NCBI RefSeq assembly: GCF_024502345.1
Contig: NZ_JALDNN010000001.1
Source: Escherichia coli
GTDB lineage: Bacteria > Pseudomonadota > Gammaproteobacteria > Enterobacterales > Enterobacteriaceae
DNA: 64,000 nt
Direction: 5' to 3' (one strand)
Below are positions 4,998 to 52,590 of this stretch, piece after piece (the first letter of the stretch is position 1; every line of letters begins with the position of its first letter). The translations under genes were made by a program, and so were the position numbers. The notes beneath the pieces were generated by a model. The model saw nothing but the letters and a program-made list of their open reading frames with translations, was not told where the DNA came from and did not search any database.

Positions 4998-5136
4998 CGC
5001 AACTGATTAAAAACCCAGCGTCCGCGTCGCTTTCCGCGCGTGGGCGTTGGCGTGACTCATCGCGCTGATGTATTATGGCGCGCTATCCATCCGGGCAGAG
5101 GCCTGGCTGATTGTTTCCCCCGAAGTCACCAAGATC

Positions 5137-5430
5137 ATGGCCAAAGAACAAACGGACCGTACGACATTAGATCTGTTCGCGCACGAGCGTCGACCGGGAC
5201 GACCGAAAACAAATCCGCTTTCGCGCGATGAACAGCTGCGTATTAATAAACGCAACCAACTAAAACGCGACAAAGTACGTGGCCTTAAGCGTGTCGAACT
5301 GAAGCTGAACGCGGAAGCTGTCGAGGCGCTGAACGAGCTGGCGGAATCGCGCAATATGAGCCGTAGCGAACTGATCGAAGAGATGTTAATGCAGCAACTG
5401 GCGGCGCTGCGTAGTCAGGGCATCGTTTAA
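5137..5430 (+). CDS. ybfE: Small conserved protein YbfE (annotated as LexA-regulated)
   Basis: 97 aa from internal Met MAKEQTD...; basic, helical. Confidence 0.8.
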
Positions 5431-5569
5431 ATTTCCACTTTCATGTAGCACAGTGTGCAGTCCTGCTCGTTTGCTGATTCCGCAAGACTGCCTGTTCTGC
5501 TATGATTGCCTTTATCCGTGGGCAATTTTCCACCCCCATTTCAATAAGTTTCAAGAGGTTATTTCACTC

Positions 5570-6100
5570 ATGGCTATCACTGGCATCTTTTTCGGCAGCG
5601 ACACCGGTAATACCGAAAATATCGCAAAAATGATTCAAAAACAGCTTGGTAAAGACGTTGCCGATGTCCATGACATTGCAAAAAGCAGCAAAGAAGATCT
5701 GGAAGCTTATGACATTCTGCTGCTGGGCATCCCAACCTGGTATTACGGCGAAGCGCAGTGTGACTGGGATGACTTCTTCCCGACTCTCGAAGAGATTGAT
5801 TTCAATGGCAAACTGGTTGCGCTGTTTGGTTGTGGTGACCAGGAAGATTACGCCGAATATTTCTGCGACGCATTGGGCACCATCCGCGACATCATTGAAC
5901 CGCGCGGTGCAACCATCGTTGGTCACTGGCCAACTGCGGGCTATCATTTCGAAGCATCAAAAGGTCTGGCAGATGACGACCACTTTGTCGGTCTGGCTAT
6001 CGACGAAGACCGTCAGCCGGAACTGACCGCTGAACGTGTAGAAAAATGGGTTAAACAGATTTCTGAAGAGTTGCATCTCGACGAAATTCTTAATGCCTGA
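5570..6100 (+). CDS. fldA: Flavodoxin 1
   Basis: 176 aa from internal Met ([16 protein letters not shown]...); flavodoxin FMN-binding signature. Confidence 0.95.
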
Positions 6101-6103
6101 TGT

Positions 6104-6133
6104 GATGCGGCGTAGACTCATGTCTACGCCGCA
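6104..6133 (+). terminator. Hairpin downstream of fldA (partial terminator or processing site)
   Basis: gatgcggcgtagac / gtctacgccgcatt inverted repeat immediately after fldA stop. Confidence 0.5.
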
Positions 6134-6305
6134 TTAATAGATAATGCCAATCAAAATAATTGCTACAAATTTGTAACTTTTGCTGTTGTACCTGTACAAT
6201 GTCCCGGTGTTCAAGTGGCCTTGCCGTTGTAAATGTAAGCTGTGCCACGTTTTTATTAACAATATTTGCCAGGGACTTGTGGTTTTCATTTAGGCGTGGC
6301 AATTC

Positions 6306-6324
6306 TATAATGATACGCATTATC
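6306..6324 (+). promoter_or_regulatory. Fur box in fur/uof promoter region (autoregulation)
   Basis: TATAATGATACGCATTATC matches the 19-bp Fur consensus GATAATGATAATCATTATC at 15/19 positions. Confidence 0.6.
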
Positions 6325-6396
6325 TCAAGAGCAAATTCTGTCACTTCTTCTAATGAAGTGAACCGCTTAGTAACAGGACAGATTCCGCATGACTGA
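6310..6396 (+). CDS. uof: uof, upstream-of-fur leader peptide (28 aa)
   Basis: MIRIISRANSVTSSNEVNRLVTGQIPHD; 3' end overlaps fur start, consistent with translational coupling. Confidence 0.8.
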   Translation: MIRIISRANSVTSSNEVNRLVTGQIPHD

Positions 6397-6835
6397 TAAC
6401 AATACCGCCCTAAAGAAAGCTGGCCTGAAAGTAACGCTTCCACGTTTAAAAATCCTGGAAGTTCTTCAGGAGCCGGACAACCATCACGTCAGTGCGGAAG
6501 ATTTATACAAACGTCTGATCGATATGGGTGAAGAAATTGGTCTGGCTACGGTATATCGCGTACTGAACCAGTTTGACGACGCTGGTATCGTCACCCGCCA
6601 CAATTTTGAAGGCGGTAAATCCGTATTTGAACTGACACAGCAACATCACCACGATCACCTGATCTGCCTCGACTGCGGCAAGGTTATCGAATTTAGTGAT
6701 GATTCCATCGAAGCGCGTCAGCGTGAAATTGCCGCAAAACATGGCATTCGCCTAACTAACCACAGTCTCTATCTTTACGGTCACTGTGCCGAAGGCGATT
6801 GCCGCGAAGATGAACATGCGCACGAAGGCAAATAA
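6389..6835 (+). CDS. fur: Ferric uptake regulator Fur
   Basis: 148 aa; HHHDH and CxxC metal-binding motifs. Confidence 0.97.
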   Translation: MTDNNTALKKAGLKVTLPRLKILEVLQEPDNHHVSAEDLYKRLIDMGEEIGLATVYRVLNQFDDAGIVTRHNFEGGKSVFELTQQHHHDHLICLDCGKVIEFSDDSIEARQREIAAKHGIRLTNHSLYLYGHCAEGDCREDEHAHEGK

Positions 6836-6850
6836 GCCAGCCTGAATGAG

Positions 6851-6880
6851 AAAAAGCCAACCTGCGGGTTGGCTTTTTTA
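6851..6880. terminator. Intrinsic terminator after fur (bidirectional with chiQ)
   Basis: aaaaagccaacc-tgcg-ggttggcttttttat. Confidence 0.8.
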
Positions 6881-6919
6881 TGCAAGGGAAATAAGAAAAG
6901 CGAGAGTTACAGCTCTCAC

Positions 6920-7246
6920 TTATTTGTTATTACTGCGAATTTCCTGCCAAACTTTATCACAATCGGCTTTCACCGCCTGATCATTTCCGGTTTGCGTTGC
7001 ACGCAGACACTGCTGATAATCCAGTACGCGGACACTTTCCTGGTCGGCAAAATGCTGATGTTGTTTCTCTTTCTTCAGCACGTTTAACACGCTCTGGCAG
7101 GCTTCAATTTTTTCTGGCGAACCTTGTGCGGTGTTGATACAGGCGCTGTATGCCTCTTTCAGACGACTGTCTTCCTGTGGCGCGGTTGATTGCGCACAAG
7201 CTACCAGCCCCGATGCCATTATGGCGATGAGAATCAGTTTTTTCAT
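6920..7246 (-). CDS. chiQ: Lipoprotein ChiQ (YbfN)
   Basis: 108 aa; signal peptide with lipobox LVAC. Confidence 0.85.
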   Translation of the reverse strand: MKKLILIAIMASGLVACAQSTAPQEDSRLKEAYSACINTAQGSPEKIEACQSVLNVLKKEKQHQHFADQESVRVLDYQQCLRATQTGNDQAVKADCDKVWQEIRSNNK

Positions 7247-7295
7247 TGAAAATTCCTCAAACGTGCGGCAGGCACAAAACCTGCCGCGTCGTGCA

Positions 7296-8702
7296 TCAGA
7301 AGATGGTGAATGGTGCGATTACCATAAATTTCACGTCACGCTCATCCTGGAAGATGTTACCGTAACCGCCGCCCCAGCTTGGGATGTCGGAGTGGTTGTC
7401 GTATTCGGTGAAGTGCAGTTTGAACATCGTGCCTTTGGCGCGACCGTCCTGAATGGTGTAGACCGCATCCAGGCTGTAGGCAGACTCTTCAATAGTCCGG
7501 TTTTTGTCGTAGTACGCATCCGGATTGCTCTGCCAGGTCGCAGGTTTAGCATCCCATGCGTAAACGTAGGAAGCGCCGATGGCGAAGCCTGGAAGATTCC
7601 AGTTTTTCAGGTCATACATCGCACCGAAGAAGACCGCTTTTTCGCCGTTAGCGTTGAAGTCGGAACGGTTATCCCACCAGATATCCAGGCGGCCGTTGGA
7701 GGAAGCGTAGGTTGGAGTCATACGTTGCAGGAAGTATCCCTGCTGACCGTCAGCCTTAACCCAGGTGCCTTCGAGGCGCAAATCCACTACGTCAGCCGCC
7801 CGGTAACCAAAGGTCAACGCTTGCAGCCAGGCGGTGCCGTCATAAAGGTCGTTGACGCTGCGATCGTCAACTTTATCGCGCGTACCATAGAACTGGTAGC
7901 TGGTGGTTAACGGGCTACCGGCGATATCAAATTTGTAGCTGGCTTTGGCAAAATATTGATCGATATACCCTTCCGCCTGACCAAATGCCGCTTCCAGTAC
8001 GAAGTTATTTTTGAAGTCGTATTTCGCCCCAAGGGAGTGCAGATAATCAACTTTGGTGGTTTTATCGTTCTGATAAAACTCATCCATTTCCAGATGCCAC
8101 GGCGCTTTGTATTCGTTGGTCCACATGTAGGAGAAACTCAACGCACCAGCATCGCCGTAATCAAAATTCGCCCCGGCTTCCGCCCCCTGATAAGTACCTG
8201 GCATAAAGCTCCAGTGCGGCGCTAACAGCGTTTGACCAGTTGGCTGAATGTAACCTGCCCTCGCCCAAACCGGACCGTATTTAAATTTGGCCGCAGCTTT
8301 ATACAGGCTTATACCGCTTTTGTCGCCGGACCAGTCTTCGTCATAGGCTTTATTACTTTTTGAAAACGCGATTTCGTTCGGGTGGGAGCTGTCGCCGTTT
8401 TCCGCCATTTCAATCGCCGTAAACGCAGCAATATCAAGGCCGAACATATCAGCAGCATAACCGGACTGAAAATCGAGGTTGGCATTCCAGGTGGAGTGAG
8501 AAAGGTTGGTTTTGTATTTGTCGCCGTCGGTAACATCTTTACGGTCGCGTTCACGCTGCCAGTAATATATACCGCCGGTTAAGGTTGAATCGTCGATGAA
8601 TCCTTCGGCGCGAGCCTCCGGCATTGCCATAAAGCCCGACATTGCTGTAACACCGGCGATAGCCAGCGCCAGCGTACTACGTTTGCCACTAAACGTACGC
8701 AT
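7296..8702 (-). CDS. chiP: Chitoporin ChiP (YbfM), OprD-family outer-membrane porin
   Basis: 468 aa; N-terminal signal peptide; C-terminal aromatic residue (...PFTIF) typical of beta-barrels. Confidence 0.9.
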
Positions 8703-9103
8703 GGGTTAATCCTCTTTGACGTATAAATTGCTGCACCAAAGGTGAACAGCGAAAAAATAAAAATTAAAAAAGTAGCGTTGAGAAAAGTCTCGCTGACTAC
8801 AGGAACAGACTATTTTTCGCGGCGCGAATTATCAATCTCTTTCTGTAACCAGAATGTAAGAACATGAGCAACCGCACATATTTTGATGATTTTTGTTACA
8901 AGGCTTAAGTTTGCGGTTGAAAGGCTTGCAGAAGAATAAAAGCGTGAATTTCCAGCAAGATGAAAGCGGTTACATTTTATTTAATTATGTTTTGTTATTT
9001 TAAATTTATTTTATGGATAAATTGCGAAGCGGAATTAATTCGTGAAGAAAAGCAGAAAAAAACGCCGCAGACCGCGGCGTTTAGGATTGTTTGCATGTTT
9101 CTT

Positions 9104-17515: not shown

Positions 17516-17614
17516 GCCTGATGCGCTACGCTTATCAGGCCTACGCAGCTCCTGCAATATATTGAATTTTCATGCTTTTGTAGGCCGGATAAGGCGTTCA
17601 CGCCGCATCCGGCA
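17516..17614. repeat. REP/BIME element (Z REP, IHF-like spacer, inverted Y REP)
   Basis: Reverse-complement copy of the element at 9104-9201. Confidence 0.85.
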
Positions 17615-19905: not shown

Positions 19906-19982
19906 GGCTACGTAGCTCAGTTGGTTAGAGCACATCACTCATAATGATGGGGTCACAGGTTCGAATCCCGTCGTAGCCACCA
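19906..19982 (+). tRNA. metT: tRNA-Met (CAU), elongator
   Basis: 77 nt; ggctacgtagctcag...CCA; anticodon loop ctCATaa. Confidence 0.95.
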
Positions 19983-19991
19983 TCTTTTTTT

Positions 19992-20076
19992 GCGGGAGTG
20001 GCGAAATTGGTAGACGCACCAGATTTAGGTTCTGGCGCCGCAAGGTGTGCGAGTTCAAGTCTCGCCTCCCGCACCA
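19992..20076 (+). tRNA. leuW: tRNA-Leu (UAG)
   Basis: 85 nt with long variable arm; anticodon loop ttTAGgt; ends CCA. Confidence 0.93.
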
Positions 20077-20099
20077 TTCACCAGAAAGCGTTGTACGGA

Positions 20100-20174
20100 T
20101 GGGGTATCGCCAAGCGGTAAGGCACCGGTTTTTGATACCGGCATTCCCTGGTTCGAATCCAGGTACCCCAGCCA
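20100..20174 (+). tRNA. glnU: tRNA-Gln (UUG)
   Basis: 75 nt; tggggtatcgccaagcggtaagg...; anticodon loop ttTTGat. Confidence 0.93.
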
Positions 20175-20208
20175 TCTTCTTCGAGTAAGCGGTTCACCGC
20201 CCGGTTAT

Positions 20209-20283
20209 TGGGGTATCGCCAAGCGGTAAGGCACCGGTTTTTGATACCGGCATTCCCTGGTTCGAATCCAGGTACCCCAGCCA
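20209..20283 (+). tRNA. glnW: tRNA-Gln (UUG)
   Basis: 75 nt; identical to the copy at 20100-20174. Confidence 0.93.
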
Positions 20284-20298
20284 TCGAAGAAACAATCT

Positions 20299-20375
20299 GG
20301 CTACGTAGCTCAGTTGGTTAGAGCACATCACTCATAATGATGGGGTCACAGGTTCGAATCCCGTCGTAGCCACCA
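20299..20375 (+). tRNA. metU: tRNA-Met (CAU), elongator
   Basis: 77 nt; identical to the copy at 19906-19982. Confidence 0.93.
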
Positions 20376-20423
20376 AATTCTGAATGTGTCGAATACGTTC
20401 GGCAAATTCAAAAACCAATTTGT

Positions 20424-20498
20424 TGGGGTATCGCCAAGCGGTAAGGCACCGGATTCTGATTCCGGCATTCCGAGGTTCGAATCCTCGTACCCCAGCCA
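20424..20498 (+). tRNA. glnV: tRNA-Gln (CUG)
   Basis: 75 nt; anticodon loop ttCTGat (wild-type, not the supE amber-suppressor allele). Confidence 0.93.
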
Positions 20499-20535
20499 AT
20501 TTATTCAAGACGCTTACATCGTAAGTGCACCCAGT

Positions 20536-20610
20536 TGGGGTATCGCCAAGCGGTAAGGCACCGGATTCTGATTCCGGCATTCCGAGGTTCGAATCCTCGT
20601 ACCCCAGCCA
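20536..20610 (+). tRNA. glnX: tRNA-Gln (CUG)
   Basis: 75 nt; identical to the copy at 20424-20498. Confidence 0.93.
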
Positions 20611-28093: not shown

Positions 28094-29002
28094 ATGCAAT
28101 TACGTAAACCTGCCACAGCAATCCTGGCCCTGGCGCTTTCCGCAGGACTGGCACAGGCAGATGACGCAGCCCCGGCAGCGGGCAGTACGCTGGACAAAAT
28201 CGCCAAAAACGGTGTGATTGTCGTCGGTCACCGTGAATCTTCAGTACCTTTCTCTTATTACGACAATCAGCAAAAAGTGGTGGGTTACTCGCAGGATTAC
28301 TCCAACGCCATTGTTAAAGCAGTGAAAAAGAAACTCAACAAACCGGATTTGCAGGTAAAACTGATTCCGATTACCTCACAAAACCGTATTCCGCTGCTGC
28401 AAAACGGCACTTTTGATTTTGAATGTGGTTCTACCACCAACAACGTCGAACGCCAAAAACAGGCGGCTTTCTCTGACACTATTTTCGTGGTCGGTACGCG
28501 CCTGTTGACCAAAAAGGGTGGCGATATCAAAGACTTCGCCGATCTGAAAGGCAAAGCCGTAGTCGTCACTTCCGGCACTACCTCTGAAGTTTTGCTCAAC
28601 AAACTGAATGAAGAGCAAAAAATGAATATGCGAATTATCAGCGCCAAAGATCACGGTGACTCTTTCCGTACCCTGGAAAGCGGTCGTGCCGTTGCCTTTA
28701 TGATGGATGATGCTCTGCTGGCCGGTGAACGTGCGAAAGCGAAGAAACCAGACAACTGGGATATCGTCGGCAAGCCGCAGTCTCAGGAAGCCTATGGTTG
28801 CATGTTGCGTAAAGACGATCCGCAGTTCAAAAAGCTGATGGATGACACTATCGCTCAGGTGCAGACCTCCGGTGAAGCGGAAAAATGGTTTGATAAATGG
28901 TTCAAAAATCCCATTCCGCCGAAAAACCTGAACATGAATTTCGAACTGTCAGACGAAATGAAAGCACTGTTCAAAGAACCGAATGACAAAGCACTGAACT
29001 AA
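28094..29002 (+). CDS. gltI: Glutamate/aspartate ABC transporter periplasmic binding protein
   Basis: 302 aa from internal Met with aaggag RBS; signal peptide ...AGLAQA. Confidence 0.93.
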   Translation: MQLRKPATAILALALSAGLAQADDAAPAAGSTLDKIAKNGVIVVGHRESSVPFSYYDNQQKVVGYSQDYSNAIVKAVKKKLNKPDLQVKLIPITSQNRIPLLQNGTFDFECGSTTNNVERQKQAAFSDTIFVVGTRLLTKKGGDIKDFADLKGKAVVVTSGTTSEVLLNKLNEEQKMNMRIISAKDHGDSFRTLESGRAVAFMMDDALLAGERAKAKKPDNWDIVGKPQSQEAYGCMLRKDDPQFKKLMDDTIAQVQTSGEAEKWFDKWFKNPIPPKNLNMNFELSDEMKALFKEPNDKALN

Positions 29003-29004
29003 TT

Positions 29005-29152
29005 ACAAGAACCAGGGGCGGAAATTCTAGCCCTCTCGATTGTTACGTAGCACGGACAGACTATACGCCTGATGGTCGTTCCCCATCGGGCCTGAAAACC
29101 GCAATACGCTGGGTAACAATCTTCGAGGGTAGCAGTTAACGCTGCTACCCTC
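29005..29152 (+). ncRNA. sroC: SroC sRNA (gltI-gltJ intergenic, processed from the gltIJKL transcript; GcvB sponge)
   Basis: Position matches the known sroC locus; ends in hairpin ggtagcagc-gttaacgctgctaccc plus T-run (29117-29152); boundaries approximate. Confidence 0.6.
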
Positions 29153-29171
29153 TTTTTTCTGGAGTAGATTT

Positions 29172-51596: not shown

Positions 51597-51626
51597 AAAA
51601 AAAAACCCGCTGATTAAGCGGGTTTT
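51597..51626. terminator. Bidirectional intrinsic terminator between crcB and cspE
   Basis: aaaaaaaaacccgc-tgattaa-gcgggtttt. Confidence 0.8.
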
Positions 51627-51645
51627 GAATTCTTGCTGACGTATC

Positions 51646-51855
51646 TTACAGAGCGATTACGTTTGCAGCAGAAGGGCCTTTGGCACCGTTAGTGATTTCG
51701 AACTCTACGCGCTGACCTTCAGCAAGAGTTTTAAAACCATTAGTCTGGATTGCAGAGAAGTGTACGAACACGTCTTTGCTGCCGTCTTCCGGAGTAATGA
51801 AACCGAATCCTTTGGACTCATTAAACCACTTAACGTTACCTTTAATCTTAGACAT
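51646..51855 (-). CDS. cspE: Cold-shock-domain protein CspE
   Basis: 69 aa from internal Met; KGFGFI (RNP1) and VFVHF (RNP2) motifs. Confidence 0.95.
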
Positions 51856-52029
51856 CAAAATTACCTTTACATGAAAAATAGACACAAATGCTGTGTCGGT
51901 TACCAGTACACCAATTGTGGTACGCTTTGTCCAGTGCAACTTTACTAAAAAGTGATAAAAGTCGCGTTATTTTTGATGTTACTTATTTTAGCTATTGATT
52001 TTAAAGAAGTTACTAAAACTTCATTTGTC

Positions 52030-52590
52030 TCAAAACTGAAAGCGCATCCAGGCAAAGTACACATTGCCATTGTTGTAGGTACCCGGAATGTAGGTCATCT
52101 GAAAAGTCACTGGGCCATAACCCACGGAGGCCAATGGCAGTAGAACCGGGAGAGGGATGTAATTCCAGTTATCGCGTGCCGTTACGCCAGCGGTGAATCC
52201 CAGACCTAAATGAAAATTTTCATCCGCCAGCGGTCGCCAGGTACTTTCCCATCCGTATCCGGCAATCGGTTCCCATTTGTTCCACGAGTCCTTAAATGCC
52301 ATGGCATACAGGCCATGCCAGTTTCCTTTTTCATCCCAACGCGACAGGCCAAAACCGCCACCCCACGGTCGCTCGTTATAGCGATCGGTTTTTTCTTTGT
52401 CGTAAGCGAAACGTGCATGCCAGGTGATGGCAGGAATATATAAATCATAATGTTCAGGCTGTTGCCAGGTTTGTGCAATATTTTCTCTAAACGTTGTCAT
52501 CCACTCATCTGCGTTAGCAAAAACTTTACCAACGCTGATTAACTGAATAAAAACAAAGGAAAAGATAGCGACATATTTACTCACGTTCAT
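52030..52590 (-). CDS. pagP: Lipid A palmitoyltransferase PagP
   Basis: 186 aa from internal Met; signal peptide; small beta-barrel. Confidence 0.92.

Follow-up and report, generated by a model that had tools for sequence, protein, structure and literature searches.

The 64,000-nt stretch of Escherichia coli DNA analyzed here, termed the window below, raises the question of whether a short open reading frame (ORF) directly upstream of fur is a genuine leader gene, and on which fur transcripts it can take part in regulation. The ORF starts with the ATG at 6310-6312 on the plus strand, comprises 28 sense codons and ends with the TGA at 6394-6396, which predicts the peptide MIRIISRANSVTSSNEVNRLVTGQIPHD. 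Since the ATG of fur is located at 6389-6391, both reading frames overlap by 8 nt (ATGACTGA). The initial annotation had described a 28-codon ORF that begins inside a Fur-box match, overlaps the fur start codon with its 3' end and is listed only as the tail of a longer 78-aa ORF. All three features were recovered, as the ATG at 6310 lies within the Fur-box match at 6306-6324, the terminal TGA overlaps the fur ATG at 6389 by 8 nt, and the ORF list contains this frame only within a TTG-started ORF at 6160..6396.

Taken by itself, an ORF of 28 codons could well occur by chance at this locus, where 49 ORFs of at least 20 aa overlap positions 5000-8000. It is set apart from chance ORFs by its identity to the annotated uof gene, by the unique Fur box and by its repeated occurrence across many Enterobacteriaceae. 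Its 87 nt all match b4637 of E. coli K-12 MG1655 (coordinates 710639-710725; 100% DNA identity), annotated as "RyhB-regulated fur leader peptide" and listed in EcoCyc as G0-10580. DNA and peptide are therefore the same in both strains, as are the position between fldA and fur, the 8-nt overlap with fur, the TCA at codon 6 and the Fur box, and no difference occurs inside the element. Between 6101 and 6446 the window deviates from K-12 only at 6132 and 6442, both outside uof. Of 5426 complete E. coli genomes, 5424 contain a match to the 350 bases from 6101 to 6450, and a 121-base core was at least 99% identical in 5096 of these 5424. "uof: fur leader peptide" is annotated by RefSeq next to fur in all matches listed. 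The NCBIfam equivalog NF011344 ("fur leader peptide", curated cutoff 71 bits) matched the peptide over its full length (positions 1-28) with 85.2 bits (E 1.8e-24). No Pfam family was matched by the peptide, and a search of the fur leader against Rfam yielded nothing at the gathering score, with miRNA matches at chance level only (E 2-8). The neighborhood shows the usual ybfE-fldA-uof-fur / chiQ-chiP arrangement. The ORF is identified as uof (b4637), the known 28-codon upstream ORF of E. coli fur, with a probability of about 0.93. This agrees with the identity proposed initially, for which an alignment with annotated uof had been suggested. The gene is already known, annotated and experimentally studied. 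The uof-fur pair is a textbook-level case of upstream ORF coupling combined with small RNA (sRNA) control and transcription-factor feedback in iron homeostasis, and nothing new was discovered in this respect.

The anatomy of the locus could be refined. The Fur-box match TATAATGATACGCATTATC at 6306-6324 contains three mismatches to the 19-bp consensus GATAATGATAATCATTATC, so its score is 16/19 and not 15/19 as first noted. Likewise, the stretch 6306-6396 that had been assigned to uof ends correctly with the TGA at 6396, but its first position belongs to the Fur box and not to the ORF. No other Fur-box match with at most three mismatches is present on either strand of the 64-kb window (0.02 expected), and 2 of 100 shuffled sequences contained one such match. 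The match spans the -10 hexamer (6306-6311) of a predicted sigma-70 promoter, and this hexamer ends with the A and T of the uof ATG (TATAAT-G). When the fldA-fur spacers of 17 genera were aligned, TATAATGA and ACGCAT were invariant or nearly so. The -35 and -10 hexamers consist mostly of invariant positions, as does the following GA.ACGCAT, and the -10 TATAAT is invariant across all 17 genera. A Fur box over the -10 of Pfur-a, a separate promoter Puof further upstream and fur start sites within the uof ORF have been described (PMC6191717, PMC7867234), and Fur autoregulation has been reported (PMC7867234, PMC12683245). The candidate Fur box is the predicted operator of the promoter whose -10 hexamer holds the first two bases of the uof ATG. 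Fur box, -10 hexamer and uof start codon thus share common bases, and the Fur-repressible promoter gives rise to an mRNA without uof.

This last point follows from published transcript data. SMRT-Cappable-seq defined a fur-alone (b0683) operon with a reverse-strand transcription start site (TSS) at K-12 position 710716 (PMC6131387, Supplementary Data 2), which was transferred to the window by subtracting the K-12 coordinate from 717035. In addition, transcripts covering fldA-uof-fur from 711521 and ybfE-fldA-uof-fur from 711951 were reported (PMC6131387), and two fur mRNA species have been described (PMC6191717, PMC7867234). Cappable-seq supplements gave no hit at the coordinates searched. Because the TSS at 6319 is located inside uof and past its AUG, the fur-only transcript cannot encode uof, and uof translation is therefore possible only on longer transcripts. 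The uof AUG is missing from the mRNA of the Fur-box promoter. An obvious candidate for Puof, which would provide the uof-containing mRNA, is the promoter-like site TTGTAA-18-TACAAT, located in a block (6162-6200) that is largely invariant in 17 genera. The coordinates of these and other features are given in Table 1.

The conserved stretch around this promoter-like site extends further upstream. The block 6137-6200 on the plus strand is largely invariant in the 17 genera, and the tetramers ATAG-N7-CAAT-N7-ATTG precede TTGTAA-18-TACAAT in it. Their spacing resembles that of an OxyR site, and 6137-6200 is likely a Puof/OxyR-dependent promoter.

Table 1. Features of the uof-fur locus and other RNA features located in the 64,000-nt window.
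Feature	Position	Strand	Basis
Upstream promoter-like site TTGTAA-18-TACAAT, candidate Puof	6171..6200	+	9/12
fur-proximal sigma-70 promoter (predicted)	6283..6311	+	-35 TTTTCA 6283-6288, 17-nt spacer, -10 TATAAT 6306-6311; 10/12
Fur box TATAATGATACGCATTATC (predicted)	6306..6324	+	16/19 to consensus; only match in window
uof coding sequence, 28 codons plus TGA	6310..6396	+	ORF; identity to K-12 b4637; NF011344
TSS of fur-only transcript (published)	6319	+	K-12 710716; 9 nt downstream of the A of the uof ATG
uof codon 6, TCA (Ser)	6325..6327	+	Sequence; role from PMC7466049
Candidate RyhB pairing site	6329..6342	+	GAGCAA 6329-6334 complementary to RyhB U42-C47, including G44 and C45
Leader hairpin UCACUUC-(7 nt)-GAAGUGA (probable)	6341..6361	+	uof codons 11-18; -8.5 kcal/mol, z -2.6
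fur Shine-Dalgarno AGGA	6375..6378	+	10 nt before fur ATG; ACAGGAC block invariant
fur coding sequence, 148 aa	6389..6835	+	ORF list, annotation
uof-fur overlap ATGACTGA (fur start codon, uof stop codon)	6389..6396	+	Sequence, ORF list
Term-seq RNA 3' end (published)	6390	+	K-12 710645, reverse strand; T of fur ATG; PMC7815308
ES036 sRNA match	17537-17579	-	Window RNA scan
Seven-tRNA gene cluster (Met, Leu, Gln x2, Met, Gln x2)	19906-20610	+	Window RNA scan
sroC	28998-29160	+	Window RNA scan
cspA-type thermoregulator leader	51598-52040	-	Window RNA scan

The primary paper on uof-fur is that of Vecerek, Moll and Blasi from 2007, and the mechanism is described here as given in later papers. According to these secondary accounts, fur translation is coupled to uof translation, and RyhB, which is itself repressed by Fur, blocks the initiation of uof and in this way lowers Fur synthesis (PMC7534054, PMC12683245, PMC11550727). 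The residues G44 and C45 of RyhB are required for control of uof/fur (PMC6191717). The Ser-UCA at codon 6 is preferentially read by tRNA-Ser(UGA) carrying the ms2i6A modification, which is made by the Fe-S enzyme MiaB (PMC7466049). On transcripts containing the uof AUG, ribosomes would thus translate uof and terminate at the UGA at 6394-6396 over the fur AUG (AUGACUGA), and termination at this codon would promote initiation of fur by translational coupling, as described in the literature. Under iron limitation, the Fur-repressed RyhB would pair near the 5' part of uof and block initiation, resulting in less Fur, and the need for MiaB-made ms2i6A in the tRNA-Ser that decodes codon 6 would constitute a second iron-dependent input. 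We infer that uof control is confined to the longer transcripts, namely the Puof mRNA and read-through from fldA or ybfE, and that, at the Fur box, Fur regulates its own synthesis through the mRNA without uof. The coupling claimed by the initial annotation is supported by secondary literature, with the correction that the mRNA of the Fur-box promoter is without uof and that only transcripts started upstream are eligible. The uof peptide itself is probably not the functional product; on this reading of the sequence, translation of the uof frame, rather than the peptide, can matter. A similar principle is known from thrL and ivbL, the targets of GcvB, where an sRNA also lowers the downstream gene by blocking initiation of a short upstream ORF (PMC7534054). 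However, thrL and ivbL work by transcription attenuation, whereas uof has no terminator and works by the overlap of stop and start codons.

Several points weigh against the uof model. The fur-only transcript of the proximal promoter cannot use uof, no recognizable Shine-Dalgarno sequence was found upstream of uof by inspection of the sequence, and the mechanistic steps were taken from secondary accounts. Furthermore, pairing with RyhB is without computational support, because duplex energies were no better than those of shuffled sequences. With the RyhB sequence of K-12, a duplex at the candidate site (6329-6342) reached -12.1 kcal/mol, which is not better than shuffles, and when the RyhB core was moved along the leader in windows, the best value was -13.8 kcal/mol, with shuffles averaging -17.2. 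Prediction of the RyhB-uof-fur model also failed in a published benchmark. Pairing of RyhB at uof rests on experiment, not on sequence. Folding of the leader with full-length RyhB was discarded, as it produced meaningless long duplexes.

A tentative alternative, possible but unlikely, is that the conserved element is an RNA, consisting of the hairpin at 6341-6361 and the adjacent RyhB site on both short and long mRNAs, to which uof coupling was added in a lineage-specific manner in Escherichia, Citrobacter, Enterobacter and their relatives. RyhB lowers the short fur mRNA and not the long uof-fur mRNA (PMC6191717), a finding that favors the RNA element and counts against the uof model. RyhB1 is reported in the literature to repress fur in Yersinia, which is without uof; for Y. 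enterocolitica the absence of uof has been published (PMC7867234). In most Enterobacteriaceae, including genera without the upstream ORF, a hairpin is found at an equal distance from fur with differing arms such as ACUUCC/GGAAGU, CUUCCC/GGGAAG, CGCUCA/UGAGCG, GCUCC/GGAGC and GCUUCG/CGGAGC. Its presence in genera that lack the upstream ORF indicates that it is not a coding side effect. When leaders were anchored on position only, 43% of the unique ones had a perfect 6/6 partner for the 6-mer at offset -34 within the 3-12 nt preceding it, compared to 0-6% at control offsets. After identical 3' arms had been collapsed, 4-7 arm types with a perfect partner remained at offsets -36 to -33, compared to 0-2 at control offsets outside the hairpin.

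Other results speak against the RNA element. In the closest, gapless group of sequences the four core pairs are invariant and covariation is not significant, as 66 of 500 shuffles reach it. RNAalifold did not recover the hairpin from a 64-sequence MAFFT alignment, which is explained by length differences that misalign the arms. A covariance model built from the close group found only close relatives and reverse-strand echoes and did not reach distant genera. Moreover, this alternative is compatible with a function of uof in E. coli. The leader hairpin at 6341-6361 is probably real; it has no Rfam family, and no mention of it was found in the literature examined. The whole leader is not unusually stable when folded from three possible 5' ends (z -0.3 to -0.7). 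Occlusion of the fur Shine-Dalgarno sequence by a 3-bp GGA:UCC pairing was rejected as too weak.

The leader also contains a prominent RNA 3' end. Term-seq of K-12 assigned a mean of 137,086 reads to position 710645 (LB, OD 0.4), or 180,817 in a second listing of the same file, and flagged it as "uORF" (PMC7815308, supplementary files 1 and 3). It is absent from the main-text discussion of that study (PMC7815308). For scale, the 3' end of the fldA terminator at 710897 (window 6138) was covered by 47,785 reads and scored 19.7 as a terminator. The 3' end at 6390 is compatible with processing, with exonuclease protection or with an event linked to uof termination. A doubtful extension of the RNA element would be that the leader holds an apparently undescribed conserved hairpin and an abundant short RNA ending at 6390, sponge-like or cleavage-derived, with uof as a lineage-specific overlay on an older RNA-level control. 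If this were true, the short RNA would contain the RyhB site, measure ~72 nt if started at the TSS at 6319, and might serve as a ChiZ-like sRNA sponge; alternatively, the end at 6390 would result from cleavage linked to uof termination. ChiZ and IspZ, which are sponge sRNAs derived from 5' untranslated regions, likewise show an abundant Term-seq end at the 5' end of an sRNA-paired mRNA (PMC7815308). The comparison with the fur leader refers to its published 3' end and the candidate RyhB site. ChiZ is annotated in K-12 directly upstream of chiP, which by coordinate transfer would correspond to ~8700-8800 on the minus strand of the window, ~2.3 kb away.

A reading that is improbable, and more so than either form of the RNA element, sees the upstream ORF as a by-product with little contribution of its own, which arises from two other constraints: TATAATG of the -10/Fur box would supply the ATG and fur codons 2-3 (ACT GAY, yielding TGA) the stop codon, so that any open frame between them ends on the fur start. 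This was assessed with 80 Enterobacterales fur loci (81 sequences including the window). A TATAATG motif is present 55-100 nt upstream of fur in 72 of the 81 sequences, irrespective of whether the ORF stays open, and both non-fur frames contain a TGA over the fur start, at +1 and +5. An ATG at the Fur-box position was found in 73 sequences (best Fur-box match per sequence in the 80-locus set). The frame starting there reaches the fur start in only 46 of these 73, comprising 37 that end at the TGA at +5, which is the uof frame, and nine in the other frame that end at the ATGA overlap. In 22 of the 73 it stops upstream of fur, including Salmonella enterica subsp. arizonae, Klebsiella oxytoca, Raoultella and Atlantibacter; in one it runs past the fur start and in four it continues in frame into fur. 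Among 72 leaders, the ATG frame was free of stop codons in 49, compared to 31 for another frame and one for the frame beginning with the TGA of ATGA. The 23 distinct 28-codon versions of the ORF show 14, 11 and 13 variable sites out of 28 at the first, second and third codon positions, i.e. neither an excess of third-position substitutions nor another codon-position signature. The peptide is conserved at its ends, where its codons overlap the promoter/Fur-box block and the ribosome-binding block of fur. The location of the proximal TSS inside the ORF also fits a by-product, and the missing or shortened ORF in several genera, together with its reported absence from Y. enterocolitica, further weakens the uof model. 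Against a by-product stand published E. coli experiments on the start codon, on coupling and by toeprinting (summarized in PMC6191717, PMC12683245 and PMC7534054), the length differences of 3 nt (ATG at -79 versus -82) that preserve the frame in many genera, and the near invariance of the uof sequence within E. coli.

In S. enterica subsp. arizonae (L028), K. oxytoca (L038) and Raoultella (L053) the ATG is located 78 or 81 nt from fur and not 79 or 82 nt. This spacing shifts the frame and truncates the ORF to 14-16 codons, with a stop codon 30-39 nt before the fur ATG and no overlap. The four in-frame extensions of fur belong to Buttiauxella, Dryocola and Enterobacter sp. R1 (L057, L058, L060 and L063), with the ATG ~66-69 nt upstream; long transcripts in these strains could encode a Fur with 22-23 additional N-terminal residues. 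Of the 37 sequences with the uof frame, the window included, 15 carry TCA as codon 6, and TCA is not kept at this position beyond leaders of the Escherichia, Citrobacter and Pseudescherichia type. Enterobacter, Kosakonia, Phytobacter, Leclercia and one Citrobacter species harbor CCA or CCG (Pro) at this position. Coupling and the UCA feature thus look lineage-restricted in this comparison. The patchy conservation of the ORF and of its UCA codon, and the uof-less mRNA of the Fur-box promoter, limit the extension of the E. coli model to other enterobacteria. Clear homologues of uof from Citrobacter (65.3 bits) and Enterobacter (55.6 bits), found at L008, L033 and similar loci as 28-codon ORFs that end on the fur start, score below the NF011344 cutoff of 71, and annotation pipelines relying on this model would leave them unnamed.

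It is very improbable that uof acts like trpL or hisL, as a transcription-attenuation leader peptide in control of a terminator before fur. EcoCyc lists uof among its leader peptides and the Term-seq 3' end maps to the uof-fur junction, but a terminator-like site is absent from 6310-6400, the hairpin has no U tract, the leader folds no more stably than shuffles, and a run of regulatory codons is missing. The 3' end itself was given an intrinsic terminator score of 1.13, where values of at least 3 denote intrinsic terminators, and a Rho score of 1.10 ("No") (PMC7815308, supplementary files 1 and 3). Least of all, with a likelihood close to nil, is the longer ORF at 6160-6396 (78 aa with the TTG start, 65 aa with an ATG start at 6199) the true gene: the frame is open from 6160 in the window, but the uof ATG at -79 is the most upstream one in frame in E. 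albertii and in another E. coli genome, positions 6200-6280 are poorly conserved, the ATG at 6199 is part of the upstream -10-like hexamer (TACAAT-G), and annotation support is absent.

Upstream of the uof-fur spacer, the terminator of fldA forms the hairpin GCGGCGTAGAC...GTCTACGCCGC at 6107-6138 on the plus strand, the last position of which coincides with the Term-seq 3' end at 710897, and its stem covaries across genera (alignment A2).
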